The translations under genes were made by a program, and so were the position numbers. From Candidatus Poriferisodalis sp. (GTDB lineage: Bacteria > Actinomycetota > Acidimicrobiia > Acidimicrobiales > Poriferisodalaceae), in contig NZ_OZ240249.1 of assembly GCF_965198245.1 (NCBI RefSeq), positions 1,244,200 through 1,308,199 on the forward strand: a DNA stretch of 64,000 nucleotides, read 5' to 3'. The notes under the pieces were generated by a model. That model did no database searches, was not told where the DNA came from, and was given only the letters and a program-made list of their open reading frames with translations. How positions within the stretch are numbered: position 1 is the first letter of the stretch; each line of letters starts with the position of its first letter. Positions 6,965 to 37,010 of the stretch are shown here, one piece after another.

Positions 6965-7809
6965 GCCGCCGCCTTCTGCTCGAAGGGCTCGTAGCCGTCG
7001 CGTTCGAGTTCGGCAGCCAGTTCAGGACCGCCCGAGGCCACGATCCGCCCGTCGACCAGCACATGCACATGGTCGGGCTCGATCTCGCCGAGCAGGCGCT
7101 CGTAGTGGGTGATGAGCACGACGCCCATGTGCGGCCGCTCGGCGCGAACCTGCTGCAGACCAGTCGCGACCACCCGCAACGCGTCGATGTCGAGTCCCGA
7201 ATCGGTCTCGTCGAGCACTGCCACATCGGGCTCCAGCAGGGCCAGCTGCAGGATCTCGTTGCGCTTGCGCTCGCCGCCGCTGAACCCTTCGTTGAGGTAG
7301 CGGTCCATGAACGACTCGTCCATGCCGAGCCGTGACATCCATTCGCCCATGGCGACATAGATCTCGATGGCCGACACGTCTTCGCCACGGCGTGCCGAAA
7401 CTGCTTGGCGCAGGAAGTTGCGCACCGACACGCCGGGGATGTGCTGGGGGTACTGGAAGGCCAGGAACAGGCCGGCCTTGGAGCGGGCATCGGGATCCCA
7501 TTCGGAGATGTCGTCGCCTCGATACCGGATCTCACCGCCGGTGACCTGGTACTCGGGCGATCCCAAGATCGTGGTGGCCAGCGTCGACTTACCCGACCCG
7601 TTGGGGCCCATGATGGCGTGGCACTCGCCCGCGTTGACTGTCAGATCCACGCTCCGCAGGATCTGCGGCCCGTCGACAGCTCGGACACCCAAGCCGTCGA
7701 TCTCGAAGAGGGGTGCGCCCCCCGCAGCGTCCGGCGCAATGTCGGCTGCCGCGCCTCCCGGCGCCATATCGGCTGCCGAGCCTCCCGCCGCTGTGTCGCC
7801 CAATGCCAT
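6961..7809 (-). CDS. sufC: SufC ABC ATPase (paralog 2)
   Basis: Walker A GPNGSGKST, FSGGERKRNEILQL, VLDETDSGLDIDAL, ITHY. The start is uncertain: Met at 7809 or 7767. The N-terminal leader is encoded by an imperfect 27-bp duplication (7733..7759 / 7760..7786, 3 mismatches). The rest of the 375-aa listed ORF is Arg/Pro-rich and unlikely to be coding. Confidence 0.85.
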   Translation of the reverse strand: MALGDTAAGGSAADMAPGGAAADIAPDAAGGAPLFEIDGLGVRAVDGPQILRSVDLTVNAGECHAIMGPNGSGKSTLATTILGSPEYQVTGGEIRYRGDDISEWDPDARSKAGLFLAFQYPQHIPGVSVRNFLRQAVSARRGEDVSAIEIYVAMGEWMSRLGMDESFMDRYLNEGFSGGERKRNEILQLALLEPDVAVLDETDSGLDIDALRVVATGLQQVRAERPHMGVVLITHYERLLGEIEPDHVHVLVDGRIVASGGPELAAELERDGYEPFEQKAAA

Positions 7810-22849: not shown

Positions 22850-23097
22850 GGGACCTCGCGACCTGCTGCATCGGGGTGGCGGGCGATCATCATGTTGGCG
22901 ATGGAGCGCACCACCGTGGTGCCGTCCTGGTTGACGAGTGCGTGGGTCATCTTGATGATGCCGCGGTCGGGTTTGGAGCGGCTCGGGCGAAGCTCCAGAA
23001 TCTCGATCACGATTGTGAGACGGTCGCCTGGGTGCACCGGTGCCAGCCAGCGCAACTCGTCGAGGCCGGGCGAACCCATGCTTGACGGCCCCAGCAC
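22846..23097 (-). pseudogene. 3'-terminal fragment (last ~72 codons) of a MaoC-like dehydratase gene. Duplicate of the 3' end of 32703..33179 and left boundary of the island.
   Basis: 63/72 aligned residues are identical to aa 85-156 of the intact gene. It lacks the N-terminal 84 codons, including the hot-dog helix. DNA copies are 22879..23094 and 32712..32927. Confidence 0.8.
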
Positions 23098-23283
23098 GTG
23101 ATCTCCCTCGGCGCGCGGACCGCGCAGGTTTGATTCTGACCAGCGGAAACCGAAATGAACGTGTCGTCAGAGCGACGGCGAAACCGAGGAAACCCCGGCA
23201 GGAGCAGCAATTCTCCGTTCAGTTCGCCGTGGGGGGTGCGGCCGCGATTTCTGATCCGAGAGCCCTTCTGCGGCCACTCAGTT

Positions 23284-23652
23284 TCACCAGATTGGCAAGT
23301 CTCGGACCCGAATCCTCGTGGGACTGAGCGAGACGACAGCGCCGGCTTCCAGTGCCTCCGCCAAGACCGGGAGGCTCTCCACAAGCAGAGCCGCATGCGC
23401 ATCCGGCGACTGGTGAGACACGCCTCGCAAGTGGATGACTGAAGGACTCACCGAGCGGCGCCGAAACAGGAGTGCTCCGAAATCCGAATCAGACGTGGCC
23501 ACGACGTACCCATGCTCCGCAGCCCATTCCAGGATGGTCTCATCCGCTGCGGTAAGCATGTCCACGTCGCCGACATGGAGGGTTTCATGGCCGCCAGCCC
23601 TGAGTGCTCCTGCGACTCGTGGAGACAGGTTGGCGTCGAGGAGGATTCTCAC
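23284..23652 (-). CDS. DUF5615-family PIN-like (Mut7-C-type) putative toxin
   Basis: MRILLDANLSPRVAGALRAGGHETLHVGDVDMLTAADETILEWAAEHGYVVATSDSDF is the typical DUF5615 N-terminus. 4-nt overlap with the upstream DUF433 gene. Confidence 0.7.
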   Translation of the reverse strand: MRILLDANLSPRVAGALRAGGHETLHVGDVDMLTAADETILEWAAEHGYVVATSDSDFGALLFRRRSVSPSVIHLRGVSHQSPDAHAALLVESLPVLAEALEAGAVVSLSPTRIRVRDLPIW

Positions 23653-23885
23653 GCAGACAGGGAAGCGGAGAGTTCTCTCTCGCTGACCCGGGCGGCGGCA
23701 AACTCAAGTGCCGCCGTGATGTCGTCCGTCTCGAGATACGGATAGTCGGATAGCAACTCCTCACGGGTCCTGCCAGCGGCAAGCTGTCCCAGCACCGTTG
23801 CAACGGTCACCCGCAGATCCCTGATGCAGGGCAGACCGCCCATGCGGTGAGGATCAACAGTGATCCGGTCCAAGAGCACGGCCAC
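23649..23885 (-). CDS. DUF433-family putative antitoxin
   Basis: 78 aa. ITVDPHRMGGLPCIRDLRVTVATVLGQLAAGRTREELLSDYPYLETDDITAAL matches the DUF433 pattern. Confidence 0.7.
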   Translation of the reverse strand: MAVLLDRITVDPHRMGGLPCIRDLRVTVATVLGQLAAGRTREELLSDYPYLETDDITAALEFAAARVSERELSASLSA

Positions 23886-23969: not shown

Positions 23970-24075
23970 CTACCGTGAAATCGGCTAACAGGTTCTCGTC
24001 CGCTGCGAACAGCATGTCCACCTGACCGACATGCATCGCCTCGTGGCAGTTAGCACGGGCCCCCTGTTCTCGCGT
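23970..24075 (-). pseudogene. Decayed remnant of a second DUF5615-type toxin gene
   Basis: Minus-strand translation NCHEAMHVGQVDMLFAADENLL parallels GGHETLHVGDVDMLTAADETIL of 23284..23652. The DNA is also visibly similar (about 23990-24045 vs 23555-23600). There is no intact N-terminus or partner antitoxin. Confidence 0.5.
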
Positions 24076-24228: not shown

Positions 24229-27200
24229 TCATGACGCGTACGCAAGCAGAGCATCGAGGACTCTGAATGCTTCACCGCGAACCAGTTCGTCGTGATGAGC
24301 CTGATTGCGGTAGGTCCGCAGGCAGCCATAGCAACTCGCTTTCAGGGCGCACGCGCAATCGCCGACGATTTTCCTTGCCTGATCCGTGAGTTGCGCGAGT
24401 TCCTCACGAATCAGGCGGACGTAGCCGGCGCCGCCCGGCACCGAGTCGAAGATGATCAACGCAGTGCCGCCGCCATCAGGAAGAGGACGCAGTGTTCCGT
24501 CGACGTCATCGGTGGGAATGCCGAGCACCGGGGTTGCGGCAAGCAACGATTGCAGGGTGCTGCGCGCTTCGATTCGGCTAAGCGGCCTCTTCAAGTCAAG
24601 TTCGAGTACGTCGGTCAGAAAAGTATGTCCAAGGTCAAGAACGCGCGGTCGTCCGCTGCATTCTCGTTGAGAACCAGGCCTGTTGTGGGTTCTCGGAGGC
24701 TTCTTTCGGTCTTGGTTGACGAGTGGTTCTCCATACCCGCACGTCAGACACATTCGAAAGCCTCGTGATGCCGGTCCAGCGTTGATGGCGGTGATCTGTC
24801 CCTGCCGACTGAAGCGAGCACCGATCGTGACGTTTTCTATCGGTGCCTGCTCCCACGGGGGCTGTTCCCCTTCGTAGTCACTGAAGAACGAACGTGCCCA
24901 ACCCGCTCGAGGCGGCCGGGTCTCCCCAGGCTGTTCCCGACTCCTGTAGCCGATGAAACCGAATTGCGGTACGACGAATTGCCGCTCGGCGATTGGGTTG
25001 CTGCAGGCACTGCACGGTGGCGCGAGGTGATGATCCTCGGCATCGAAATCGCGTCGTACACGAAAATCGCCGCACTTCTGACACTCGGAGTAGGAGCGTG
25101 CATAGAGTGCCCGACCCGGCGGGGCTCGCAATCCGTCGGATTCCCAGATGGCCTTCTTCGCCACCACCTTGGAACCTGGTGCGTACTCGGTGATGCCCCA
25201 GCGCAGGTCTCTGTTGAGATCGAGCGCTCCGGCGTCACGGTCGCCGTCGCGCCAAAGATCCAGTACGGCGACGTCGACCGGGAACCCGTACTTGGGCAGA
25301 ACAACGCGCGTCGCCAAGTAGTCAATCAATGGTCGCTTCTCCAAGGTGGCTTGGACCCGCCTCAGGGCACCTCGGCGGTGGGCTTGCTTGGACGCGGCGT
25401 CGCTATGTCCTTGGTTGGACAATTGGCGCTCTTGTTGGTCTGCGTCTTCGATTGCACGTTCGATCTCTGCCAGATCCTCTCGAATCGATTCAGCGGCGCG
25501 CCTGAGCGAGCCAGCGGGTTCGTCGGCTTGGTTACCAGTAGTGCCTGCGGTCAAGTGGTCGACCCATTCCCACGTCTGAACACCGAGTTCTGGGGCCACA
25601 GCCTCCGGCGTAATGCGAGCTATCGCCCGTCCGAGTTCCTCCGGATATGAACGCAGCCAGTCGACAAATTCGTCGACCGCAGCCGGTCGGCCATCTGTGG
25701 GGCGAAAGAACGACGCCACATCCCTGTGCGGTTCGCGCCCCGTGGTCGCGATGCGGCGCTCGAATGCCGCGAACGCCACGGCGTGAATATGCCGTCGCAC
25801 AATCTGCGAATTCCGTAGCGACACGATCGGCACCTCGACGTGTCCGTCGATGAGACGCTGAGGCTCTCTGAAGTGATGGAGGTCGTGGCTGCGGCGCTGC
25901 GCGAATGTGACAACCAAGGCCGACTTGCCGGCTCGCCGGCCGGCCCGGCCGGCCCTCTGCACATAGTTGGCCGGCGTCGGCGGTACGTTGCGCATCAATA
26001 CCGCCTGCACGTCGCCGACATCGACGCCAAGTTCGAACGTCGTCGTGCAGCTCAGAGCGTTTATCCGGCCATCGAGGAAGTCCTGCTGATATGTGCGGGC
26101 TTGGTCGGCTGAGAGCTGACCTGTGTGCTCTTGAACGCTCATGCCCGAAGGAACCAGCGTCGTGTAGAGCCGCCCATAGTGATCGGAGGCAGACAAGTCG
26201 ACATCGGTCACGGGACGCAGCGAACCCGCGCACTGCCAAGTGGGACATACGTCGTTCACACTTCGCCATGCAACCTGCCGACAGGTACGGCACACATAGG
26301 CGGGATGTCCTTCTCGGGCTGGCACGAACCGGATCCACTCGGGGTCGATTGCGAAGGTGTGTCCCGTTTGTCTTCCGCTGCGGGACGGGAATGCCTTGTC
26401 CCAACCGCTGCCCCGGTCGGTGAGCCATCTCCATAGGCCGTCGAGAATCACCCGCTCGTCGGCCACTGCACCGCGACGGTCCAGGACCTTGTGCAGGTAA
26501 TCCATGCGACGATTCGTGCCACGGGTGGGCAGCCATGACAGCACCTTCCCGGCGCTGCCTTCCGCGCGAACCGTGGTCACGACGTTTCGCGGAGCGAACA
26601 CCTGCTCATCGATGCTCACGCCGTCAGGCAGCCAGACAGCGGCCTGCATTCGCAATGTGTCCAGCAAGACCGCCACGATGTCGAATACCTCGGCATCGCT
26701 GAAACCGAGCTGTCTCAGAGGCTCGGGCGGTCGAGCGCGTCGCGGCACGGCGACAGTGATCTCGCCGAGCCCGCTGCCGTCGAGGCTTTGACGACGATCT
26801 GTCGCCAATACCTCGGCCATCAGCCACGTTCGCACTTGTCGCCGCTTGGAGTCGCCGCTGGCATCTGGGTCGAGAACAAGATGGTCTTCTGCGAGCCTCT
26901 GGATAGGCAACACGAGATCGTCGAACCGCAAGTCGTCATCGCTGTCCCGGTCAATTGCCAGCCAGATCATCCGGCGCTGGACGGCGCGGGCGTAGGTGCG
27001 TTCGAGGTACGGCGCGAAGAAGGCCGCGTCTTGGCGGCTGTCCGCAAACATCAGCAGCTTGCGACCCTCGCCGATCTCAGGCACGACACCAGCCGGGATG
27101 TCTCCGGGCGGCAGCGCCTGATACAGGCTGGTTGCGGCCACTGCGACGGGCGCGTCTTGCCCGGTGAAGAAGCGCAGCACGATCTGGCCGTTCGTGCGCC

Positions 27201-28764
27201 CGGAACAAGTGGGACATCGGCGGAGCGGGTCATTTGGGCGCTTGGGCTTGGCGAAGACGATTCGTTCTGAGGCACCGGTCGCTCCGCAAGGACAACGTTC
27301 CTCCCCTGAGTCGCTCAGGCGACCGCAAGCAGTACAGACATGTCGGTAGTCGACCTCAGCCTCCACCTCTTCGTCGTCGACAACAGCGGCCTCGTCCTCG
27401 TCGTCGGTTTCGAGTTGTCGGCCGATCAGCAGGTAGGCCAGATTGGTTCGCTGCGGCGGTGCTTGGACCAGCCGGTCCGAGTGCTCAGGTTCTGCGGCAT
27501 CGATAGTGGCATCTTGGAGACTTCCCACGAGGAAACCCGCACCACAGCGAACGCAAAGGCCGAGTTCGAACATCTGCGAGTCGACACCGCTGTCGTCACA
27601 GCTCGGGCAGGTGTGATGTCGCTCAAGTTGCACCCTCGGTGTCGCGGGGTCGTGTGCCGGTGATCGGCACACGAAGGCGCCTTCTAGAGCCCGCAGCATG
27701 TAATGGAAGCGAGCTGGTGCATCGGTATCCGGCTCATCGACGGACGGTGTCACGATGTCCTGTCGCGCAGATTCGGTTTCGTGGTGCTCGATCAGCTCAC
27801 CAAACAGATCGGAGGCGAATCTCGCGATTCGGGACGAGGCACCCGTGCCGGTACCGAGCGTCGCAGAGGTGCCAACGAACTGCAGGCGACCGGGCTGGCT
27901 TTGCACCACGCGGTCGCGCAGACGCCGCAGCAGCATGGCGATTTCAGCGCCACGCGCGCCGTTGTATACGTGCATCTCGTCGAGCACGATCCAGCGCCAA
28001 TGCTCTCCGGTCGGGCCGTCGAACAGTGTCGTATCAACGGGCCGCAGCAGCAGATACTCGAGCATTGCGTAGTTCGTGAGCAGAATGTGGGGCGGGCGCT
28101 CTCGCATCTCTTCCCTCGACACAAGTTCGCCGTTATCGGGGTCAGCGCCCGTAGCGCCACGATGTGCTTCTACGCCCTCGCGGTGCCGCTCTCGCGTTGC
28201 GCCGATATACCGCCCGAACGTGATCTGGGGAAAGGGCCGCAGTAGATCGCGTAAGCGCTGCATCTGATCGTTGGCGAGCGCATTCATCGGGTAGAGCAAC
28301 AACGCTCGCACCCCGGGTTGACTCAGCGTCCCGGCATCGCCTTCGGTAAGGAGTTGATGCAGAATCGGGAAGAGATAGCACTCGGTCTTACCCGATCCCG
28401 TGCCAGTCGCGATGACTAGATTGCGACGCGCCACAGCCTTGCGCAGAGCGCCTTCCTGATGCTGATACAGAGGTCGCGCTGGCGGGAACACGCCCGGGTC
28501 CAGTTGAGTGAAGCGCTCATGCAGCAGCCCTGTCGAGACAAGATCACTCAGCGAGGCGCCGGTGGCATAAGCGGGAGTCGGTTGACGAAATGGGCCCTTC
28601 TCGCTCTGGAATCGCTCGTCCAGAGCAAGATGAACTTCTGCGCGCAGCGACGCGTCGGCCGGCGAGTAGCGGGTCTTCAAGTAGCGCCGATACGACTCGC
28701 CGATGCTCTTCGCAGCGGCGGCAGGATCGAATCCTGCTGCGTCGGAGTTGCGGTACTCAGTCAC
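24229..28764 (-). CDS. Large (1511 aa) SF2 DExH-box helicase with a multi-Zn-ribbon insert between the RecA lobes and a C-terminal DUF1998 (MrfA-type Zn-binding) domain. DruE/DrmA+DrmB-like.
   Basis: Motif Q/I YQHQ...ATGTGSGKTE, motif II DEMH, motif III TSATLG, motifs V-VI TTTFELGVDVGD and QRAGRAGRR. CxxC pairs (HHTCPSCDD..CVRCG, CTACG..CPCG, CPTCSG) lie between the lobes. C-terminus CLTCGYGE ... CACALKASCYGCLRTYRNQAHHDELVRGEA is the DUF1998 signature. Confidence 0.85.
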   Translation of the reverse strand: MTEYRNSDAAGFDPAAAAKSIGESYRRYLKTRYSPADASLRAEVHLALDERFQSEKGPFRQPTPAYATGASLSDLVSTGLLHERFTQLDPGVFPPARPLYQHQEGALRKAVARRNLVIATGTGSGKTECYLFPILHQLLTEGDAGTLSQPGVRALLLYPMNALANDQMQRLRDLLRPFPQITFGRYIGATRERHREGVEAHRGATGADPDNGELVSREEMRERPPHILLTNYAMLEYLLLRPVDTTLFDGPTGEHWRWIVLDEMHVYNGARGAEIAMLLRRLRDRVVQSQPGRLQFVGTSATLGTGTGASSRIARFASDLFGELIEHHETESARQDIVTPSVDEPDTDAPARFHYMLRALEGAFVCRSPAHDPATPRVQLERHHTCPSCDDSGVDSQMFELGLCVRCGAGFLVGSLQDATIDAAEPEHSDRLVQAPPQRTNLAYLLIGRQLETDDEDEAAVVDDEEVEAEVDYRHVCTACGRLSDSGEERCPCGATGASERIVFAKPKRPNDPLRRCPTCSGRTNGQIVLRFFTGQDAPVAVAATSLYQALPPGDIPAGVVPEIGEGRKLLMFADSRQDAAFFAPYLERTYARAVQRRMIWLAIDRDSDDDLRFDDLVLPIQRLAEDHLVLDPDASGDSKRRQVRTWLMAEVLATDRRQSLDGSGLGEITVAVPRRARPPEPLRQLGFSDAEVFDIVAVLLDTLRMQAAVWLPDGVSIDEQVFAPRNVVTTVRAEGSAGKVLSWLPTRGTNRRMDYLHKVLDRRGAVADERVILDGLWRWLTDRGSGWDKAFPSRSGRQTGHTFAIDPEWIRFVPAREGHPAYVCRTCRQVAWRSVNDVCPTWQCAGSLRPVTDVDLSASDHYGRLYTTLVPSGMSVQEHTGQLSADQARTYQQDFLDGRINALSCTTTFELGVDVGDVQAVLMRNVPPTPANYVQRAGRAGRRAGKSALVVTFAQRRSHDLHHFREPQRLIDGHVEVPIVSLRNSQIVRRHIHAVAFAAFERRIATTGREPHRDVASFFRPTDGRPAAVDEFVDWLRSYPEELGRAIARITPEAVAPELGVQTWEWVDHLTAGTTGNQADEPAGSLRRAAESIREDLAEIERAIEDADQQERQLSNQGHSDAASKQAHRRGALRRVQATLEKRPLIDYLATRVVLPKYGFPVDVAVLDLWRDGDRDAGALDLNRDLRWGITEYAPGSKVVAKKAIWESDGLRAPPGRALYARSYSECQKCGDFRVRRDFDAEDHHLAPPCSACSNPIAERQFVVPQFGFIGYRSREQPGETRPPRAGWARSFFSDYEGEQPPWEQAPIENVTIGARFSRQGQITAINAGPASRGFRMCLTCGYGEPLVNQDRKKPPRTHNRPGSQRECSGRPRVLDLGHTFLTDVLELDLKRPLSRIEARSTLQSLLAATPVLGIPTDDVDGTLRPLPDGGGTALIIFDSVPGGAGYVRLIREELAQLTDQARKIVGDCACALKASCYGCLRTYRNQAHHDELVRGEAFRVLDALLAYAS

Positions 28765-29626
28765 CCCAGAAATCCTCGGCGGAGTTCTCGATGTGATGCA
28801 GGCCTAGGGCGAGCAGGATGCTGCGCGTCGTCAACAGTGGGGCGATCTCGGCAGCGTCACGTAACGCAGTCGCAGCCTCAGCCGTGTCTGCCCGTCCTGA
28901 CGAGCTGTCGATCAGGTGAAATGCGGCTGCGAGGACATCTGCGGGGAACTTGTGCCACGCAGGCCTTTCCGACTCAGGCCGGACCAAGTCGAGCAGGGTG
29001 AGTTGCCGGGCGCTGAACCTCTGGGCGTAGGAGTAGACCGCATTGTGCGATGAGCGCCAATGCCTGATGCGCTCACGGTCTGGTGACCTGCGGCTGCCCG
29101 GTGCTCGGGCTGGCTCGTGCCAAGTGTTGGTCAGCATCTCGAACGCCGCATCGAGGTAGCCGCCCCACTGCAGCGGCAATGAACCGGATGGCGGCAAGGC
29201 CTGCTGCAATTCCCGCAACCTCTCTGGCCCGAACTCGTCGAGCGGAGGGGTGACGGGCTCGATTCGACCTTCAATTGGTGCCGCGCCAGTTGCGGGTCGC
29301 CAACCGCTGAAGCGTTGCCACCGGTCGAGGCTCGCGTCGGCGAGATCGCTCGGACTACTGCCGACGAACGGATTGTCTAGCGCCGCGGCTACGGTCGGGA
29401 GGGTCTTCCACAGGCGCTCCAGATCCCAATCTGTGTATCCGGCCGAGCCGTGAGCGGATGCGACGATGGCTAACTCGAGCTTGCGGAGAACCTGCGCCGG
29501 AAGCTCGGCGAGCATCGGGGCCAGACGCGGCAACAGACTGTCAGAGGTCAACACCAACTCGACGAGGTCGACCAAGGTATTCGATGCTCCTGCATTCGTC
29601 GCACTGAGCTGTGCCGCGGCCTCCAT
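28757..29626 (-). CDS. Hypothetical 289-aa protein, middle gene of the helicase operon
   Basis: Its stop overlaps the helicase start by 8 nt. Mostly helical-looking, with no motif recognised. Confidence 0.6.
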   Translation of the reverse strand: MEAAAQLSATNAGASNTLVDLVELVLTSDSLLPRLAPMLAELPAQVLRKLELAIVASAHGSAGYTDWDLERLWKTLPTVAAALDNPFVGSSPSDLADASLDRWQRFSGWRPATGAAPIEGRIEPVTPPLDEFGPERLRELQQALPPSGSLPLQWGGYLDAAFEMLTNTWHEPARAPGSRRSPDRERIRHWRSSHNAVYSYAQRFSARQLTLLDLVRPESERPAWHKFPADVLAAAFHLIDSSSGRADTAEAATALRDAAEIAPLLTTRSILLALGLHHIENSAEDFWGD

Positions 29627-29680
29627 GGCACTAGCGAGTTCGTCGGTTGCGGAGGCTGCTGCGCTGATATCCAGGCTCTT

Positions 29681-32335
29681 TTAACGGGCGGCACCTGCGA
29701 CGACAAGCTCGAGCGCCTCGAGTGGGGCCTCGGTGCGAAGACCCTCAAGTCGGATCCGCCGCTGCAGTTCCGATCCGACGAGCACATCGCGTGTGCCTGC
29801 TTGGCCGGGAATCGGCAACGTTGGCGAGGACCACTCATCGGCCAAGGTGACTTCGGCCACGTAGGGACCCGGCGGCAGCAGCAGGATTGCCTCGCATCGG
29901 CCAGCGACGTCGTCCTCCACTTCGACGCAAACGGGCTGCTCCCACGGCCGATGCTCTGACCAGAGCCGGAGTTGGCGACCAGTGAACTGGCGGTTCTCCG
30001 TCCACTCGGCGCTGACAAGGCACTCGGCGGTCTCCGGGTCGAGTTCCGTGCTGATCTCCAAGTCGCTCACAATGAACTGTGCCTCTACCACGGCGATGGG
30101 CTCGCTCAGGTCGTCGACATGGAGGATGAGATCTAGCCGAGGAGCCGTCGCAGCGGCGATTGTCGTCCGCAGTTCGGCAAGCGAGAAGGACCACCACCCG
30201 ACCGGGCTATTGGTTTGCAGAGGCCCGATCTCGTAAGGGCTTGCGTCACTGCGCAGTTCAAGTCGCAGTGTTGCCGGCCGACCGCATCGAACCAAGACCG
30301 ACCCGACTGCGCCTGATTCAATCTCGTCGAGTCCGATTCGCAGCCGCTCAACTCCGAGGGTTGGGAAGGATCCGTCGGTTCGGCGAAGCGCCCAGGTCAA
30401 TCGAGGAATCGTGACAGCGAAGGCGGTGCCGCCGGCTGTGAGGGGAACGGTGTCCTGGCCTGCCTCAAACGACAACCTCGCTTCTGAAACTCGCGCACCG
30501 CCTTCGAGAAGGAGTTCGGCATCCGCGGTGACGCGAACCTCGACGACCTCGCGCGGTACGAAGATGCGATCAGGGACATCGACGGCGAGTCCCTGAATGA
30601 CGGTTATGTCCTCGCGAATGTCGCTGCCCAATGGGCCAGACACCTCGATCGTGCCCGCGAATGCAGGGGCAGAAGGCAAGAGCGCCGCCAATTCAAATGC
30701 GCCCTCCGCACACGGCAAGTCTGCGAGTCGCGTAGTGGTCGGCGAGCGATTCTCGGCCGACGCATCTGTGGCAGGTTCGCTTTCGCTTCGAATCTCGCGC
30801 CAACGGACGCGCCACCTTTGTGGATCGGCGTCCTCGGGCATCGCAATACTCGGTGGCTCAGCGAACACGCCGCCGCCGAGCATCCCTCTTGTGCCACTGA
30901 CCGGCGCCGTCGCCAATTTGGGCCGTGCGGGGGCTCGGGCCACGGCCAGCTCCGTCAATTCCTCATCGCCGCCCGGCCCAGGAGGAGGCTTCACCAGCAC
31001 GGCAGCTACCCCCTCGAGGTCGAAGCTTCTCAGCACCCAGCCATTCCATGCGCCTGCCCGCGGAGGAAGTTCCTCTGGACTCGGGATGGGCATTCCATCG
31101 GAGTCGGTGATGGCTACGCCTGGTGATGTCAGAATCAACGCTTGGCTGGCGGGCAGCCGGTGCTGCTGACGTGTGAGATTGCCGGAGGCATCGAACACGT
31201 ATGCGTGAACCCGCTCCAAACCCGCAAACTGTCGCTCCGACTGCCGGTTGGCCGAGTGCTCGCGCCACTCAAGCGTTGCAGTCCAGCCATGCGACGGCGC
31301 GAGCGGGATATCGCGCGGATCATGCCTGCGCGTCGCGAATCTGTGTGTCATAGCACCCTGGATCAGCCACCCGCCTTCATGCGGAAAAGGCGGAAGCGTC
31401 ATGTACGGACCATCACACGAGTAGCGGTCGATTCGGACAGTGGGTCGAGGCGGACGTCGCCCACGCCGGGCCGAACGTCGTTCGTCGTTGAGCAGGGCCC
31501 GCGTCAAGTACCGGGGCAGTCCTGCGTCGGCAGAGAGTTCTGCGATGAGGTCGGTCGCGTCACGTCCGAGTTCGGCGATGTCGGCGGCCGTGTCGATCAC
31601 CCGCTGCAGAAGGTCGCTGGCAAATTCGTCGCCATACTCGAAGAAGCGTTGTACTGGCTTCGCAAGTCCTGACCAGCGGGTGCTGGACTGTCGTATGCGA
31701 CCGATGAGCTCGTCGGCATCCCAGATGCCATCGCGCAATCCGGCAAACACCAAATCTGCGACTTCGTCTGCGCACGCAGCAGGGATGCCTCCGTGCATGA
31801 GAATCGGGCTCACATACGCGAGCCAGCGTTCTCGAGCCGCCGCGTAGCTGAAGTTCTCGAGTCCGAGTTCGTCCAGTGCCGACAGAAACGCCCTGCCTAC
31901 CTTGGACTGATCGACACCTGATGAGAGGTACGGGGCAATGGCAATGTTGGGCCAGAACGTACCTTCGTCGTAACAGCGCGCACCTTCGGCGGCGAGAAAT
32001 GCTGCAGTCGAGGCGGGGTAGCGCTTCAGGCGATCAGGCACACCGTGCTGGGCGACCTTGAGGACGACGTCTCTAGCCCTCTTGAGAATCGATCCATCAG
32101 CGGAGAGGTCGAGTTCGCTGACAATGCGAATGCCGTCGAAATGACGTCGAAGCTCGCGTTCGACGAAGTACGGGTTGTCGGTGGATTGCCGCGGTGCTTG
32201 CTGTTCATCATCCGCATTACCCGTGGACATATGTGAAACGTATCCGGCTTGCATCAGCCGATGCCCGATGTGTGGCCGCAGGATCTCGAGGCCAGAGCTG
32301 TCCGTGCTGGTGCACTGGGCAGTCGATGGGCCCAA
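29681..32335 (-). CDS. Hypothetical large protein (up to 884 aa), first gene of the helicase operon. Helical N-terminal half and a beta-rich (Ig-like?) C-terminal half.
   Basis: Long ORF with coding-like composition, 54 nt upstream of the 289-aa gene. I could find no Walker, nuclease or methylase motif. The listed start is a TTG; Met28 (32254) or Met36 (32230) are alternatives. Confidence 0.6.
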   Translation of the reverse strand: MGPSTAQCTSTDSSGLEILRPHIGHRLMQAGYVSHMSTGNADDEQQAPRQSTDNPYFVERELRRHFDGIRIVSELDLSADGSILKRARDVVLKVAQHGVPDRLKRYPASTAAFLAAEGARCYDEGTFWPNIAIAPYLSSGVDQSKVGRAFLSALDELGLENFSYAAARERWLAYVSPILMHGGIPAACADEVADLVFAGLRDGIWDADELIGRIRQSSTRWSGLAKPVQRFFEYGDEFASDLLQRVIDTAADIAELGRDATDLIAELSADAGLPRYLTRALLNDERRSARRGRRPPRPTVRIDRYSCDGPYMTLPPFPHEGGWLIQGAMTHRFATRRHDPRDIPLAPSHGWTATLEWREHSANRQSERQFAGLERVHAYVFDASGNLTRQQHRLPASQALILTSPGVAITDSDGMPIPSPEELPPRAGAWNGWVLRSFDLEGVAAVLVKPPPGPGGDEELTELAVARAPARPKLATAPVSGTRGMLGGGVFAEPPSIAMPEDADPQRWRVRWREIRSESEPATDASAENRSPTTTRLADLPCAEGAFELAALLPSAPAFAGTIEVSGPLGSDIREDITVIQGLAVDVPDRIFVPREVVEVRVTADAELLLEGGARVSEARLSFEAGQDTVPLTAGGTAFAVTIPRLTWALRRTDGSFPTLGVERLRIGLDEIESGAVGSVLVRCGRPATLRLELRSDASPYEIGPLQTNSPVGWWSFSLAELRTTIAAATAPRLDLILHVDDLSEPIAVVEAQFIVSDLEISTELDPETAECLVSAEWTENRQFTGRQLRLWSEHRPWEQPVCVEVEDDVAGRCEAILLLPPGPYVAEVTLADEWSSPTLPIPGQAGTRDVLVGSELQRRIRLEGLRTEAPLEALELVVAGAAR

Positions 32336-32378: not shown

Positions 32379-32651
32379 ATGACAGCGGGCATGATGGCAG
32401 CGACACAGCTTGTCGTCGAGGCGTGGGCGGTACTCGTAGCCGCCGCGGGCATCGTCGCCAGCGTGCTCGGCACCGGCTTGGGCATCACCTTCCACCTCAG
32501 CGGACGCATCGACCACCAGTCGGATCGCATCGACCACCAGTCCGACCGCATCGACGGCGTGACCGCCGAGGTCGCCTTGGTGCGTGAGCGCGTAGCACGC
32601 CTGGAAGGCAGCTCCGGCACACCCGATCCGGGTCCGTTGCAGCTCGCCTGA
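32379..32651 (+). CDS. Small (90 aa) membrane-anchored protein with a tandem heptad repeat (RIDHQSD x2.5)
   Basis: N-terminal TM helix (AVLVAAAGIVASVLGTGLGI). The repeats are encoded by 21-bp units at 32505..32525, 32526..32546 and a partial unit at 32547..32555. Divergent from the 884-aa gene (44-bp gap). Confidence 0.4.
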   Translation: MTAGMMAATQLVVEAWAVLVAAAGIVASVLGTGLGITFHLSGRIDHQSDRIDHQSDRIDGVTAEVALVRERVARLEGSSGTPDPGPLQLA

Positions 32652-32702: not shown

Positions 32703-33179
32703 TCATGTGCGGCGGGCCATCATCATGTTCGCCACCGCGCGCACCACCGTGGTGCCGTCCTGGTTGACGAGTTCGTGGGTCATCTTGATGATGCCGCGGT
32801 CGGGCTTGGAGCGGCTCGGGCGAACCTCCAGAATCTCGACCACGAGGGTGAGAGGGTCGCCTGGATACACCGGTGCCAGCCAGCGCAGTTCGTCGAGACC
32901 AGGCGAACCCATGCTCGATGGCCCCAACAGGTATTCACCCAGCATCCTCATCATGATCGAGCCGGTATGCCATCCCGACGCGATGATCCGGCCATAGACG
33001 GTGTTTCGGGCTGCCTGGGGATCGATGTGGAAGGGCTGCGGGTCGAACTTACGGCCGAATTCGATGATCTCGGCCTCGTCGATGGTCGTCGTTCCGAACG
33101 TAAAACGTTCACCGGCCTCGTAGTCGTCGAACCATCGCTGCGGGCAGGGAATGTCGCTGGGCATCGTGACAGTCTGCAC
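32703..33179 (-). CDS. MaoC-like (R)-hydratase / hot-dog fold dehydratase, intact copy
   Basis: 158 aa. FDPQPFHIDPQAA...GRIIASGWHTGS is the MaoC hydratase motif. Lies directly downstream of aceE on the same strand. Confidence 0.8.
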   Translation of the reverse strand: MQTVTMPSDIPCPQRWFDDYEAGERFTFGTTTIDEAEIIEFGRKFDPQPFHIDPQAARNTVYGRIIASGWHTGSIMMRMLGEYLLGPSSMGSPGLDELRWLAPVYPGDPLTLVVEILEVRPSRSKPDRGIIKMTHELVNQDGTTVVRAVANMMMARRT

Positions 33180-35945: not shown

Positions 35946-37010
35946 ATGAGTCCCCAGCCGAACACCCAAGCCCGCGAAGTCTTCACTGACGGGTCGTGCC
36001 TGGGCAATCCGGGACCGGGCGGCTGGGCGTACGTGATTGACGGCGGGCCGTGGGCGTGCGGTCACGAACCCAGGACAACGAACCAGCGGATGGAGGTCAC
36101 CGCTGCGGCTCAGGCCGTCGAGGTGCTGGATGGGCCGCTGCGCATCATGAGCGACTCCACCTACGTGGTGAAGTGCTTCACCGACGAATGGTGGAAGGGC
36201 TGGCACCGGCGCAATTGGCTGAACACGTCACGCAAGCCGGTGGCCAACCGAGACCTGTGGGAGCCGTTCATCGATGCCGTGCTGGCGCGGGGCGACGTCG
36301 AGTTTGCTTGGGTGAAAGGTCACGCCGGCCAGCGGTTGAATTCCGCCGCCGATGCCCTGGCCGTGCACGCTGCGAGCGCTGGTGCTGGGCTCCGGGGCAA
36401 GCGATTCGACGATGACGTGCTCGATCAGCTCGCTGACGGGCGGTCGGGGTCGCACGGCTCCCCGAAGGGCACCGTCAGCACCGACGAGCCGACATCGGGG
36501 AACCGGGAAATCGCCGGTCACGTCGTGACCGTGCTGGGCCACCGGCCGCCGGAGCTCGGCGGGTACAACGAGAACCCGATCTTGCGCAAGGTGCTCCGGC
36601 AGCTGAGCGACGTACTCGCTGCCAAGCGCCAGATGCATCCCGATCTCGTGGTCGCGACGGGCCTCGGGCTTGGTGCCGAGACGCTGGGTGCCGAGGCTGC
36701 GCTGGCGGCTGGTGTGCCATATGCCGTGGTGCTTGCGTTCGAGGGCGTCGAACGACGGTGGCCGGGGACGTCGCGTCAACGCTTCGCCGAGCTCCGGCAG
36801 CAAGCAGCTCAAGAATTCATGCTCGGTGCCAAGTCACCAGTCGACGGAGAGGCGTTCGGCAAGGCGATGCGGCGGCGGGACACGTGGTTCATGCACAACT
36901 GCGACGAAGCGATCCTCGTTCGCCGAGCCGGCGACCGCACGCTGGCGGACCTGCACCGGCGCCTGGAAGAAGCGCTCGGCGGGGACGTGTGGGTCATCGA
37001 GCCCGACTAG
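35946..37010 (+). CDS. rnhA: RNase HI fused to a C-terminal YpsA/DUF1273-type SLOG domain
   Basis: N-terminus: FTDGSCLGNPGPGGWAY, TNQRMEV, IMSDSTYV, WVKGHAG..LNSAADALA (the DEDD residues of RNase HI). C-terminus: VTVLGHRPPELGGYNENP, VVATGLGLGAETLGAEAALAAGVPYAVVLAFEGVERRW parallels B. subtilis YpsA (ITGYKPHELG...ISGQLGVELWAAE...AVITPF). Only 21 bp separate it from the divergent aceE start. Confidence 0.75.
   Translation: MSPQPNTQAREVFTDGSCLGNPGPGGWAYVIDGGPWACGHEPRTTNQRMEVTAAAQAVEVLDGPLRIMSDSTYVVKCFTDEWWKGWHRRNWLNTSRKPVANRDLWEPFIDAVLARGDVEFAWVKGHAGQRLNSAADALAVHAASAGAGLRGKRFDDDVLDQLADGRSGSHGSPKGTVSTDEPTSGNREIAGHVVTVLGHRPPELGGYNENPILRKVLRQLSDVLAAKRQMHPDLVVATGLGLGAETLGAEAALAAGVPYAVVLAFEGVERRWPGTSRQRFAELRQQAAQEFMLGAKSPVDGEAFGKAMRRRDTWFMHNCDEAILVRRAGDRTLADLHRRLEEALGGDVWVIEPD

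Follow-up and report, generated by a model that had tools for sequence, protein, structure and literature searches.

A 64,000-nucleotide (nt) stretch of contig NZ_OZ240249.1, hereafter the window, was analyzed around a helicase gene preceded on the minus strand by two open reading frames (ORFs) of 884 and 289 amino acids (aa). The contig spans 4.39 Mb and belongs to Candidatus Poriferisodalis sp., a sponge-associated member of the Acidimicrobiia. The original prediction, made from the sequence of the window, had presented the three ORFs as one operon and as a possible new effector/sensor set. We find instead that the 884-aa and 289-aa ORFs are the halves of a single DruH-like gene of ~1157 residues. 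The locus is probably a damaged two-gene Druantia III-B-like druH-druE pair, which lies on an inserted island together with a toxin-antitoxin pair. The likeness to type III-B lies in domain make-up, as this type has been defined by the association of DruH with a compact DruE devoid of PLD domains (Bell, PMC12458937; Himpich, 10.64898/2026.05.13.724758); the III-B helicases have also been described as a phylogenetically separate branch of DruE, represented by GIH50614.1.

A single druH-like gene interrupted by a premature stop codon

The ORF list of the window places the 884-aa ORF, with a TTG start, at 29681-32335, the 289-aa ORF, with an ATG start, at 28757-29626, and the 1511-aa helicase ORF at 24229-28764, all on the minus strand. 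These ORFs, the 54-nt gap between the first two and the 8-nt overlap of the druH-like gene with the helicase start (GTGACTGA) had been described correctly, but their interpretation as two separate genes does not hold, since the 884-aa and 289-aa ORFs share the same frame and their sole separator is a TAA codon at 29681-29683. Translated straight across the junction, the window reads ...ELVVAGAAR-(stop)-KSLDISAAASATDELASAMEAAAQ..., and the uninterrupted counterpart in P0002, a homolog with 90% identity, is ...ELVVAGAARSKNLDISAAVSATDELANAMETTAQ.... Furthermore, the 19 codons that make up the apparent gap match the homologs residue by residue, with ...VVAGAAR-(stop)-KSLDISAA... in the window aligning to ...VVAGAARSKNLDISAA... 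in P0002. The length of 884 aa had to be revised as well: it is an over-extension from the upstream TTG at 32335, and the true start is likely the ATG at 32230 (MSTGNADD..., 849 codons), which is shared by homologs and by the NCBI call WP_419552288.1. The ATG of the 289-aa ORF (29626) is an ordinary internal methionine that is not conserved (isoleucine in P0009), and no Shine-Dalgarno-like sequence is present upstream of it (CGAACTCGCTAGTGCC-ATG). The gene is hence composed of a 5' part encompassing codons 1-849 (29684-32230), which is 100% identical to P0001/WP_419552288.1 and aligns to residues 1-849 of the ~1157-aa homologs, the premature TAA at codon 850, and a 3' part (28757-29680) encompassing codons 851-1157 and the stop codon at 28757-28759, in the same frame and continuous with the homologs.

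Single proteins of 1104-1225 aa spanning both ORFs account for ~40 of 44 homologs, and a single open frame is present in 17 of the 18 full-length related loci identified in species-representative genomes. The context of codon 850 is CGT TAA AAG in the window, CGT TCA AAG in the closest species-level relative (L003, an Acidimicrobiales metagenome-assembled genome [MAG], OZ246894.1, with 89% aa identity in druH) and CGT TCA CGA in a second relative (L002); the residue encoded by TCA is serine. An intact allele, again with CGT TCA AAG, was identified on a contig of another assembly (L062; ENA ERZ25766727, ctg254499_1x_l), which shares 99.13% identity with 8.3 kb of the window. The 1157-aa protein encoded there (P0325) shows 13 residue differences to the merged window translation in addition to Ser850. 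The merged window protein retains 53 of 53 invariant and 117 of 117 positions conserved at 90% or more in the family alignment, and the ratio of non-synonymous to synonymous substitution rates (dN/dS) before and after the stop is 0.21 and 0.23 against L003 and 0.20 and 0.19 against L002 (0.14 for druE). Because the conserved residues have been kept and dN/dS is equal on either side of the stop, the mutation is judged to be recent: the stop is a very recent, strain-level C-to-A substitution, and an error in the consensus sequence is much less likely.

The druH gene of L003 carries a TAA of its own, independent of that in the window, at codon 101 (7301-7303), where it replaces TAC (Tyr) next to an intact druE. 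The disruptions in L003 and in the window are both C-to-A changes giving TAA.

If the TAA were an artefact of assembly or sequencing, druH would be intact in the organism, a scenario that we regard as improbable. It draws on the one-base difference from a near-identical intact allele and on the fact that this genome is the only recorded source of the exact truncated products; judged from the window alone, moreover, a one-base sequencing error has some probability, which counts against our interpretation of the locus as damaged. A search for recorded contigs encoding the 849-aa product had no result. However, the 4.39-Mb contig is presumably well covered, substitution errors that create a stop are rare, and L003, with its different in-frame TAA, provides a precedent for nonsense alleles of this gene. 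Decay of Druantia III is also seen in Escherichia coli K-12, with a truncated yjiT and a yjiV pseudogene, and in ECONIH1, with a frameshifted druE. Two scans of JGI metagenomes yielded no match to either the TAA or the TCA allele, and a tblastn search of PLSDB with the protein yielded no match to plasmid copies. Programmed read-through or recoding of codon 850 is unlikely, because TAA terminates translation strongly when an A follows, selenocysteine and pyrrolysine do not use TAA, and the intact allele plainly encodes serine at this position.

The druH-like gene is paired with a compact DruE helicase

The 1511-aa helicase encoded at 24229-28764 (minus strand) matches the PADLOC models DruE1 (2.8e-181) and DruE3 (7.4e-170), and its Pfam domains comprise DEAD (residues 101-304, 1.2e-21), Helicase_C (873-944, 8.1e-13) and MZB/DUF1998 (1411-1482, 1.1e-10). 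Neither PADLOC nor Pfam returned a PLD or Vsr nuclease domain in this protein, which ends 29 residues past the MZB domain. On the strength of these matches, the gene is annotated as druE, and its product as a compact DEAD/DEAH helicase with an MZB (DUF1998) domain and no predicted C-terminal nuclease domain. Type I Druantia was rejected: the best PADLOC match of the helicase is DruE1, but neither partner ORF matches DruA-D and the neighbors are a toxin-antitoxin pair and metabolic genes.

A DruE-like helicase lies directly downstream of the druH-like gene, on the same strand, in 44 of 59 loci (43 distinct). Thirteen of the 15 others are cut by contig ends, leaving L022 and the fragmentary L042 as the only exceptions. 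The co-occurrence survey that had been suggested with the original prediction therefore finds the partner essentially always paired with a DUF1998 helicase. The overlap between druH and druE, which is 8 nt in the window, amounts to 11 nt in L001. These relatives have two genes, and such pairs have already been described as Druantia III-B; the proposed three-gene operon was a false lead, and no new three-gene effector/sensor set is present at this locus.

In L022 (5518-9765), an uncultured Oscillochloris sp. MAG, the partner is a distant family member of 1415 aa and the 2 kb downstream contain a membrane sensor-like ORF instead of a DruE-like helicase. The druE gene of L062, the assembly carrying the intact druH allele, is split by the gene call into fragments of 159, 1157 and 174 aa. 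Alignment of L062 with the window shows four gaps, possibly errors of a 1x contig. The two genes of the pair also differ in their divergence. Between the window and L003, identity is 89% for druH (dS 0.26-0.39) and 79% for druE (dS 0.91); for L002, the corresponding identities are 70-75% and 80.5%. This discordance suggests recombination between sensor and helicase modules.

The predicted domain layout of the merged protein matches that of DruH

The three-dimensional structure of the merged protein was predicted with AlphaFold2 using a 36-sequence family alignment. The resulting model (predicted local distance difference test [pLDDT] 81.9, predicted template modeling score [pTM] 0.78) is composed of three parts, all encoded on the minus strand: a helical N-terminal domain (residues 20-246; 31493-32171), which is the best-conserved region of the family and the one on which a weak, co-linear hhalign match to the N-terminal domain of III-A DruH falls, a beta-sandwich array (residues 264-818; 29777-31441) and a helical C-terminal domain that extends over residues 821-1156 in the model. 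The latter corresponds to residues ~821-1157 (28760-29770) and is broken by the stop at codon 850, ahead of which lie no more than two or three of its helices (821-851). The AlphaFold2 model of the E. coli III-A DruH (YjiT type), calculated separately, is likewise composed of a helical segment at residues 3-260, a beta segment at 272-818 and a helical segment at 834-1095. Furthermore, both models contain a helix inside the beta array, located at residues 685-693 in the window family and at 694-706 in E. coli DruH.

Foldseek searches of the PDB with the window family model returned arrays of immunoglobulin-like (Ig), fibronectin type III (Fn3) and macroglobulin domains (TEP1, A2M, CD109, leptin and OSM cytokine receptors, fibronectin and contactins) with E-values down to 3e-7, and no catalytic fold was among these matches to a PDB library that does not include the DruH structure 9TUD. 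The matches of the E. coli DruH model belong to the same structure class, with 11 PDB chains common to both top-50 lists. At the sequence level, a search of the PDB with the family profile produced noise only (best E 0.023, a peptide N-methyltransferase).

These predictions uphold the earlier reading, from the sequence alone, in which beta-sandwich modules come after a helical N-terminal part, and the modules are identified by Foldseek as Ig/Fn3 arrays. In cryo-electron microscopy (cryo-EM) work, DruH has been divided into ten domains, of which one is Ig-like and three are Fn3-like (10.64898/2026.05.13.724758), and the Ig-like domains of DruH have been reported to start at residue 257 (PMC13192584). 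As judged from AlphaFold2 models and published cryo-EM descriptions, the predicted three-part layout, with an N-terminal helical domain, an Ig/Fn3-like array of ~550 aa and a C-terminal helical domain, matches that of DruH.

Fragments of Mycolicibacterium smegmatis DruH map to the C-terminal half of the family

A type III Druantia system composed of MSMEG_1253 (DruH, 1132 aa) and MSMEG_1254 (DruE, 1667 aa), with a 17-nt overlap, has been validated experimentally in Mycolicibacterium smegmatis (Li & He, PMC13316683). For comparison with the window family, ~170 residues of M. smegmatis DruH were rebuilt, with noise from optical character recognition, from the mutagenesis and cloning primers listed in the supplement. 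The 11 resulting peptides were slid along the position-specific scoring matrix of the family in a position-aware manner, as hmmsearch has little power with short peptides.

Four of the 11 peptides ranked first or second within ~20 residues of their expected place. The peptide encompassing E1096, E1099 and D1108 (SRETSLAELAEVVPQLVTIDLIIAELII) mapped to family position 1118 (expected ~1113) with 19.5 bits, ranking first among 1130 positions, and the peptide containing E998 mapped to position 1015 (rank 1, expected ~1013, 8.6 bits). The peptides containing E842 (position 836, expected ~853, 7.5 bits) and T696 (position 707, expected ~707, 6.7 bits) both reached rank 2. In hmmsearch, the C-terminal peptide attained 7.4 bits, a score reached by none of 200 shuffled peptides. 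When the same peptides were mapped against a III-A profile, one alone landed near its expected place. These primer-derived fragments support, short of proof, the inclusion of M. smegmatis DruH in the family of the window protein.

Sequence evidence for and against a DruH identity

The statement that no domain could be found in either partner was corroborated, with no match to the two ORFs in PADLOC (E<=1), Pfam or NCBIfam. The full-coverage match to an established DruH profile that would have marked this as a known system was likewise found neither in PADLOC and NCBIfam nor among precomputed Pfam annotations. Positive controls behaved as intended, with E. coli YjiT matching 11 DruH3 models (best 3.7e-241) as well as NF038336, and full-length E. 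coli DruH carrying PF27205/PF27201.

Several of our results weigh against the assignment to DruH. Among relatives of the window protein, the PADLOC DruH3 models detected no DruH in sets of 36 close (E<=1) and 44 diverse (E<=0.01) family members and of 6 distant Chloroflexota and Bacillota partners (E<=0.1). Across these scans, the only matches were to an SMC-like coiled coil in one insert-bearing Bacillota protein. The NCBIfam model NF038336 (YjiT_fam) gave no match. None of 42 close homologs carries a precomputed Pfam domain, PF27205/PF27201 included; these two domains were judged by precomputed annotation only, and E. coli DruH itself scores nothing in the Pfam copy that was scanned. The N-terminal peptides of M. 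smegmatis DruH did not map, and it is only the C-terminal half that maps well. In a profile-profile comparison of 132 against 117 sequences, hhalign yielded a score of 36.3 (E 0.008), a modest margin over the 28.5-29.2 of controls with one side reversed. As a consequence, the case for homology with III-A DruH is built mostly on architecture and gene context.

Further hhalign comparisons with a III-A DruH alignment (A2) gave an E-value of 0.11 for a narrow family alignment (A1) and of 1e-4 for a diverse one (A4), the latter with a probability of 58% over 574 co-linear columns (26-663 against 38-709). The hhalign alignment pairs the invariant HGGIP of the family with the invariant EGGLP of DruH. 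These comparisons are suggestive of sequence homology to III-A DruH. A second homolog search, conducted with a III-A profile, added no diversity.

The failure of DruH profiles is expected given that two E. coli DruH variants, the YjiT type of K-12/ECONIH1 (1096 aa; L061:9001-12291) and the 9TUD type (1119 aa), share recognizable sequence only over residues 14-258 in a phmmer comparison (E 1.7e-21). Judging from this pair, DruH appears to diverge very fast outside its N-terminal domain.

An alternative interpretation is that the locus encodes a distinct, non-Druantia system in which an unrelated ~1150-aa partner has converged on the size and Ig-array layout of DruH, with the helicase module alone being shared. 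This would be in keeping with the failure of every DruH profile, with borderline profile-profile evidence and with a helicase whose top PADLOC match is DruE1 rather than DruE3, and Ig/Fn3 arrays are common building blocks. We nonetheless consider it unlikely. The predicted domain boundaries are near-identical and an equivalent helix lies within the array, the operon order and the overlap with druE are the same, and the only alignments that hhalign produces are long and co-linear from the N-terminus, with HGGIP and EGGLP paired. Moreover, profile failure is what would be expected of a fast-evolving sensor, and the literature already counts the partners of compact DruE as DruH. Of the two options that the original prediction had left for the partner ORFs, we judge that of a DruH that is split or variant to be essentially right, in preference to that of another system with only the helicase module in common. 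The protein qualifies as a DruH variant by its size, its operon position and its three-part architecture; the split is the outcome of one nonsense mutation rather than of a two-gene design.

Proposed mechanism and probable consequences of the stop codon

Published work provides a basis on which to propose roles for the intact proteins. The Ig-like region of DruH is under positive selection, and DruH associates with phage baseplate or tail proteins (PMC13192584). In M. smegmatis, a minor tail protein triggers the system, which blocks the circularisation and replication of phage DNA; DruH is toxic there on its own unless DruE is present, and the substitutions E842A, R864/865A, E1096/1099A and D1108A abolish defense (PMC13316683). 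DruH binds single-stranded DNA (ssDNA), competitively with ATP. A 3'-5' exonuclease or nicking activity of DruH was reported in two studies (10.64898/2026.05.13.724313; PMC13192584), and two others described no nuclease activity or no catalytic domain (one of them 10.64898/2026.05.13.724758). In the P. aeruginosa holocomplex with forked DNA, the C-terminal helical domain of DruH contacts the DruE stalk (10.64898/2026.05.13.724313), and DruE has been found to unwind 3' to 5' from junctions of ssDNA and double-stranded DNA (dsDNA) in studies that include the same work (10.64898/2026.05.13.724313).

By analogy with these systems, intact DruH would act as an infection sensor whose variable Ig-like array recognizes late phage structural proteins, and it may bind or process ssDNA or forked DNA. 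Through its C-terminal helical domain it would engage the stalk of DruE, which would then load at ssDNA-dsDNA junctions and unwind 3' to 5', blocking the circularisation and replication of the phage genome. The change of TCA to TAA at Ser850 would strip almost the whole C-terminal domain from the main product. Since the 849-aa product is predicted to lack the DruE-contacting domain and the region to which the essential residues map, loss of function is likely. The window copy has most likely become a pseudogene through recent inactivation, and hence is probably inactive, with druE left as an orphan. Both the sensor and effector roles and the loss of function at this locus are inferred from the systems cited above.

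It could be argued that DruH still functions in two pieces here, with translation restarting at the ATG 19 codons downstream of the stop and the 289-aa domain reassociating with the 849-aa body and with DruE. The 3' part is indeed open, keeps all its conserved residues with a dN/dS of ~0.2 and is still translationally coupled to druE, but the same signals are expected of a very recent nonsense mutation, and the 99.1%-identical strain has an intact gene. In addition, a two-gene organization at this site occurs in no relative, the stop lies inside the C-terminal domain instead of at a domain boundary, and the restart methionine is unconserved and has no Shine-Dalgarno-like sequence, all of which makes a functional split very unlikely and favors recent inactivation. 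More speculatively, and with little expectation of being right, one may imagine that nonsense alleles recur because DruH is intrinsically toxic, with single-base on/off switching in sponge symbionts, or that a two-piece sensor still works. The pair formed by the intact and stop-850 alleles, together with the nonsense allele of a sister species, could serve to test whether DruH imposes a cost that leads to its repeated inactivation.

The pair lies on a probable inserted island

The druH-like gene, druE and the toxin-antitoxin pair are bracketed by a direct repeat (D1) of 230 nt with 89% identity and a spacing of 9833 bp. The first copy (22878-23107) is a duplicated 3' fragment of a MaoC-like gene and the second (32711-32940) lies within the MaoC-like dehydratase gene itself, at its 3' end (32703-33179, minus strand; MaoC domain, 2e-15). 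The G+C content is 62-63.6% over 24-32 kb, compared to 65-69% in the flanks. The direct repeats and the drop in G+C between them point to the insertion, at the 3' end of the MaoC-like gene, of a ~9.8-kb island that holds the toxin-antitoxin pair along with druH and druE, but in which no integrase can be discerned.

The toxin-antitoxin pair lies 344 nt downstream of druE on the minus strand and consists of a DUF433 antitoxin-type gene (23649-23885; Pfam PF04255, 2.4e-22) and a DUF5615/PIN-like toxin-type gene (23284-23652; PF18480, 6e-24; PIN_10, 1.5e-8), which overlap by 4 nt. A 61-nt stretch at 23994-24054, which matches a portion of the toxin gene with 74% identity, may be the remnant of a second toxin copy. 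In L062, the region downstream of druE contains an ISL3 transposase and an AAA_14/DUF4143 ATPase in place of the DUF433/DUF5615 pair of the window. A putative gene of 90 aa (32379-32651, plus strand) lies between druH and the MaoC-like gene; its product combines a hydrophobic helix at the N-terminus with HQSDRID HQSDRID in tandem, and has no Pfam match. Beyond the island, the genes are metabolic and encode the MaoC-like dehydratase, a pyruvate-dehydrogenase-E1-like ORF, an acyl-CoA dehydrogenase and an alpha/beta hydrolase. In the product of a gene at 35946-37010 (plus strand), an RNase H domain (3e-34) is joined to a domain resembling YpsA/SLOG, the match to which (4e-5) does not reach the Pfam cut-off.

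Size and distribution of the DruH-like family

In an exhaustive search, the family profile retrieved 665 representative clusters (50% identity) at E<=1e-30 and, with the threshold relaxed to E<=1e-3, 1543 clusters, with members mostly of 1100-1200 aa. The clusters of 10 family representatives carried neither names nor organisms. Among species-representative genomes, the family is centered on the Acidimicrobiia and other Actinomycetota, and relatives in the Chloroflexota, Bacillota, Acidobacteriota and Planctomycetota are recognizable chiefly in their N-terminal ~220 residues. The PADLOC, NCBIfam and Pfam DruH models miss this large DruH-like family, and defense finders would therefore report such loci as orphan DruE, undercounting III-B in the Actinomycetota, Chloroflexota and Bacillota. 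The family alignments obtained in this work could seed a DruH-like profile.

Some members present additional modules. In Candidatus Chloroploca sp. (L025:6989-11026), a distant DruH-like protein (P0043), whose gene precedes that of a DruE-like helicase, bears a sigma-70 region 2-4 module at its C-terminus, with precomputed Pfam matches to PF04542, PF04539, PF04545 and PF00140. The partners in five Bacillota, Anaerolineae and Chloroflexia MAGs (L046, L048, L052, L053 and L058) are 1476-1663 aa long and contain, after HGGIP, a coiled-coil insert of ~500 aa with predicted transmembrane segments. The insert in L052 shows weak SMC-like matches (LmuB, 5e-8; JetC, 4e-6).

Comparison with known systems

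The helicase core of the YprA type with an MZB/DUF1998 zinc domain is a feature that the locus shares with the MrfA/MrfB (YprA/YprB) module of DNA repair and with DISARM/ARMADA. The flanking ORFs of the window contain no MrfB exonuclease, DrmB/DrmC, BrxHII helicase or PglX methyltransferase.

The yjiT/yjiV locus of E. coli K-12 is similar in that a Druantia III system has decayed in place, with yjiT corresponding to the N-terminal 503 aa of DruH (DruH3, 3.7e-241) and yjiV being a pseudogene. In K-12, however, half of druH is gone and druE is broken, whereas the genes of the window are otherwise pristine and one base away from an intact allele.

With the III-A DruH proteins of E. coli and P. 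aeruginosa (YjiT/STY4851-ECs_5259 family; 9TUD), which are 1096-1119 aa long and encoded upstream of and coupled to druE, the window protein shares the same predicted three-part layout, with boundaries within ~10-15 residues, the same structural neighbors and no recognizable catalytic domain. It differs in being missed by DruH profiles and in its borderline hhalign comparison, and the DruE of III-A is ~2100 aa long with two PLD domains, compared to none in the DruE of the window.

The closest resemblance in overall organization is to III-B and the M. smegmatis system. The stop at codon 850 of druH and the shorter DruE (1511 aa compared to 1667 aa) set the window apart from that system. In both cases, however, two co-directional, overlapping genes in an actinobacterium encode a partner of ~1130-1160 aa without annotated domains (1132 aa in M. 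smegmatis, 1157 aa for the merged window protein) and a DEAD/Helicase_C/MZB DruE without PLD nuclease domains.

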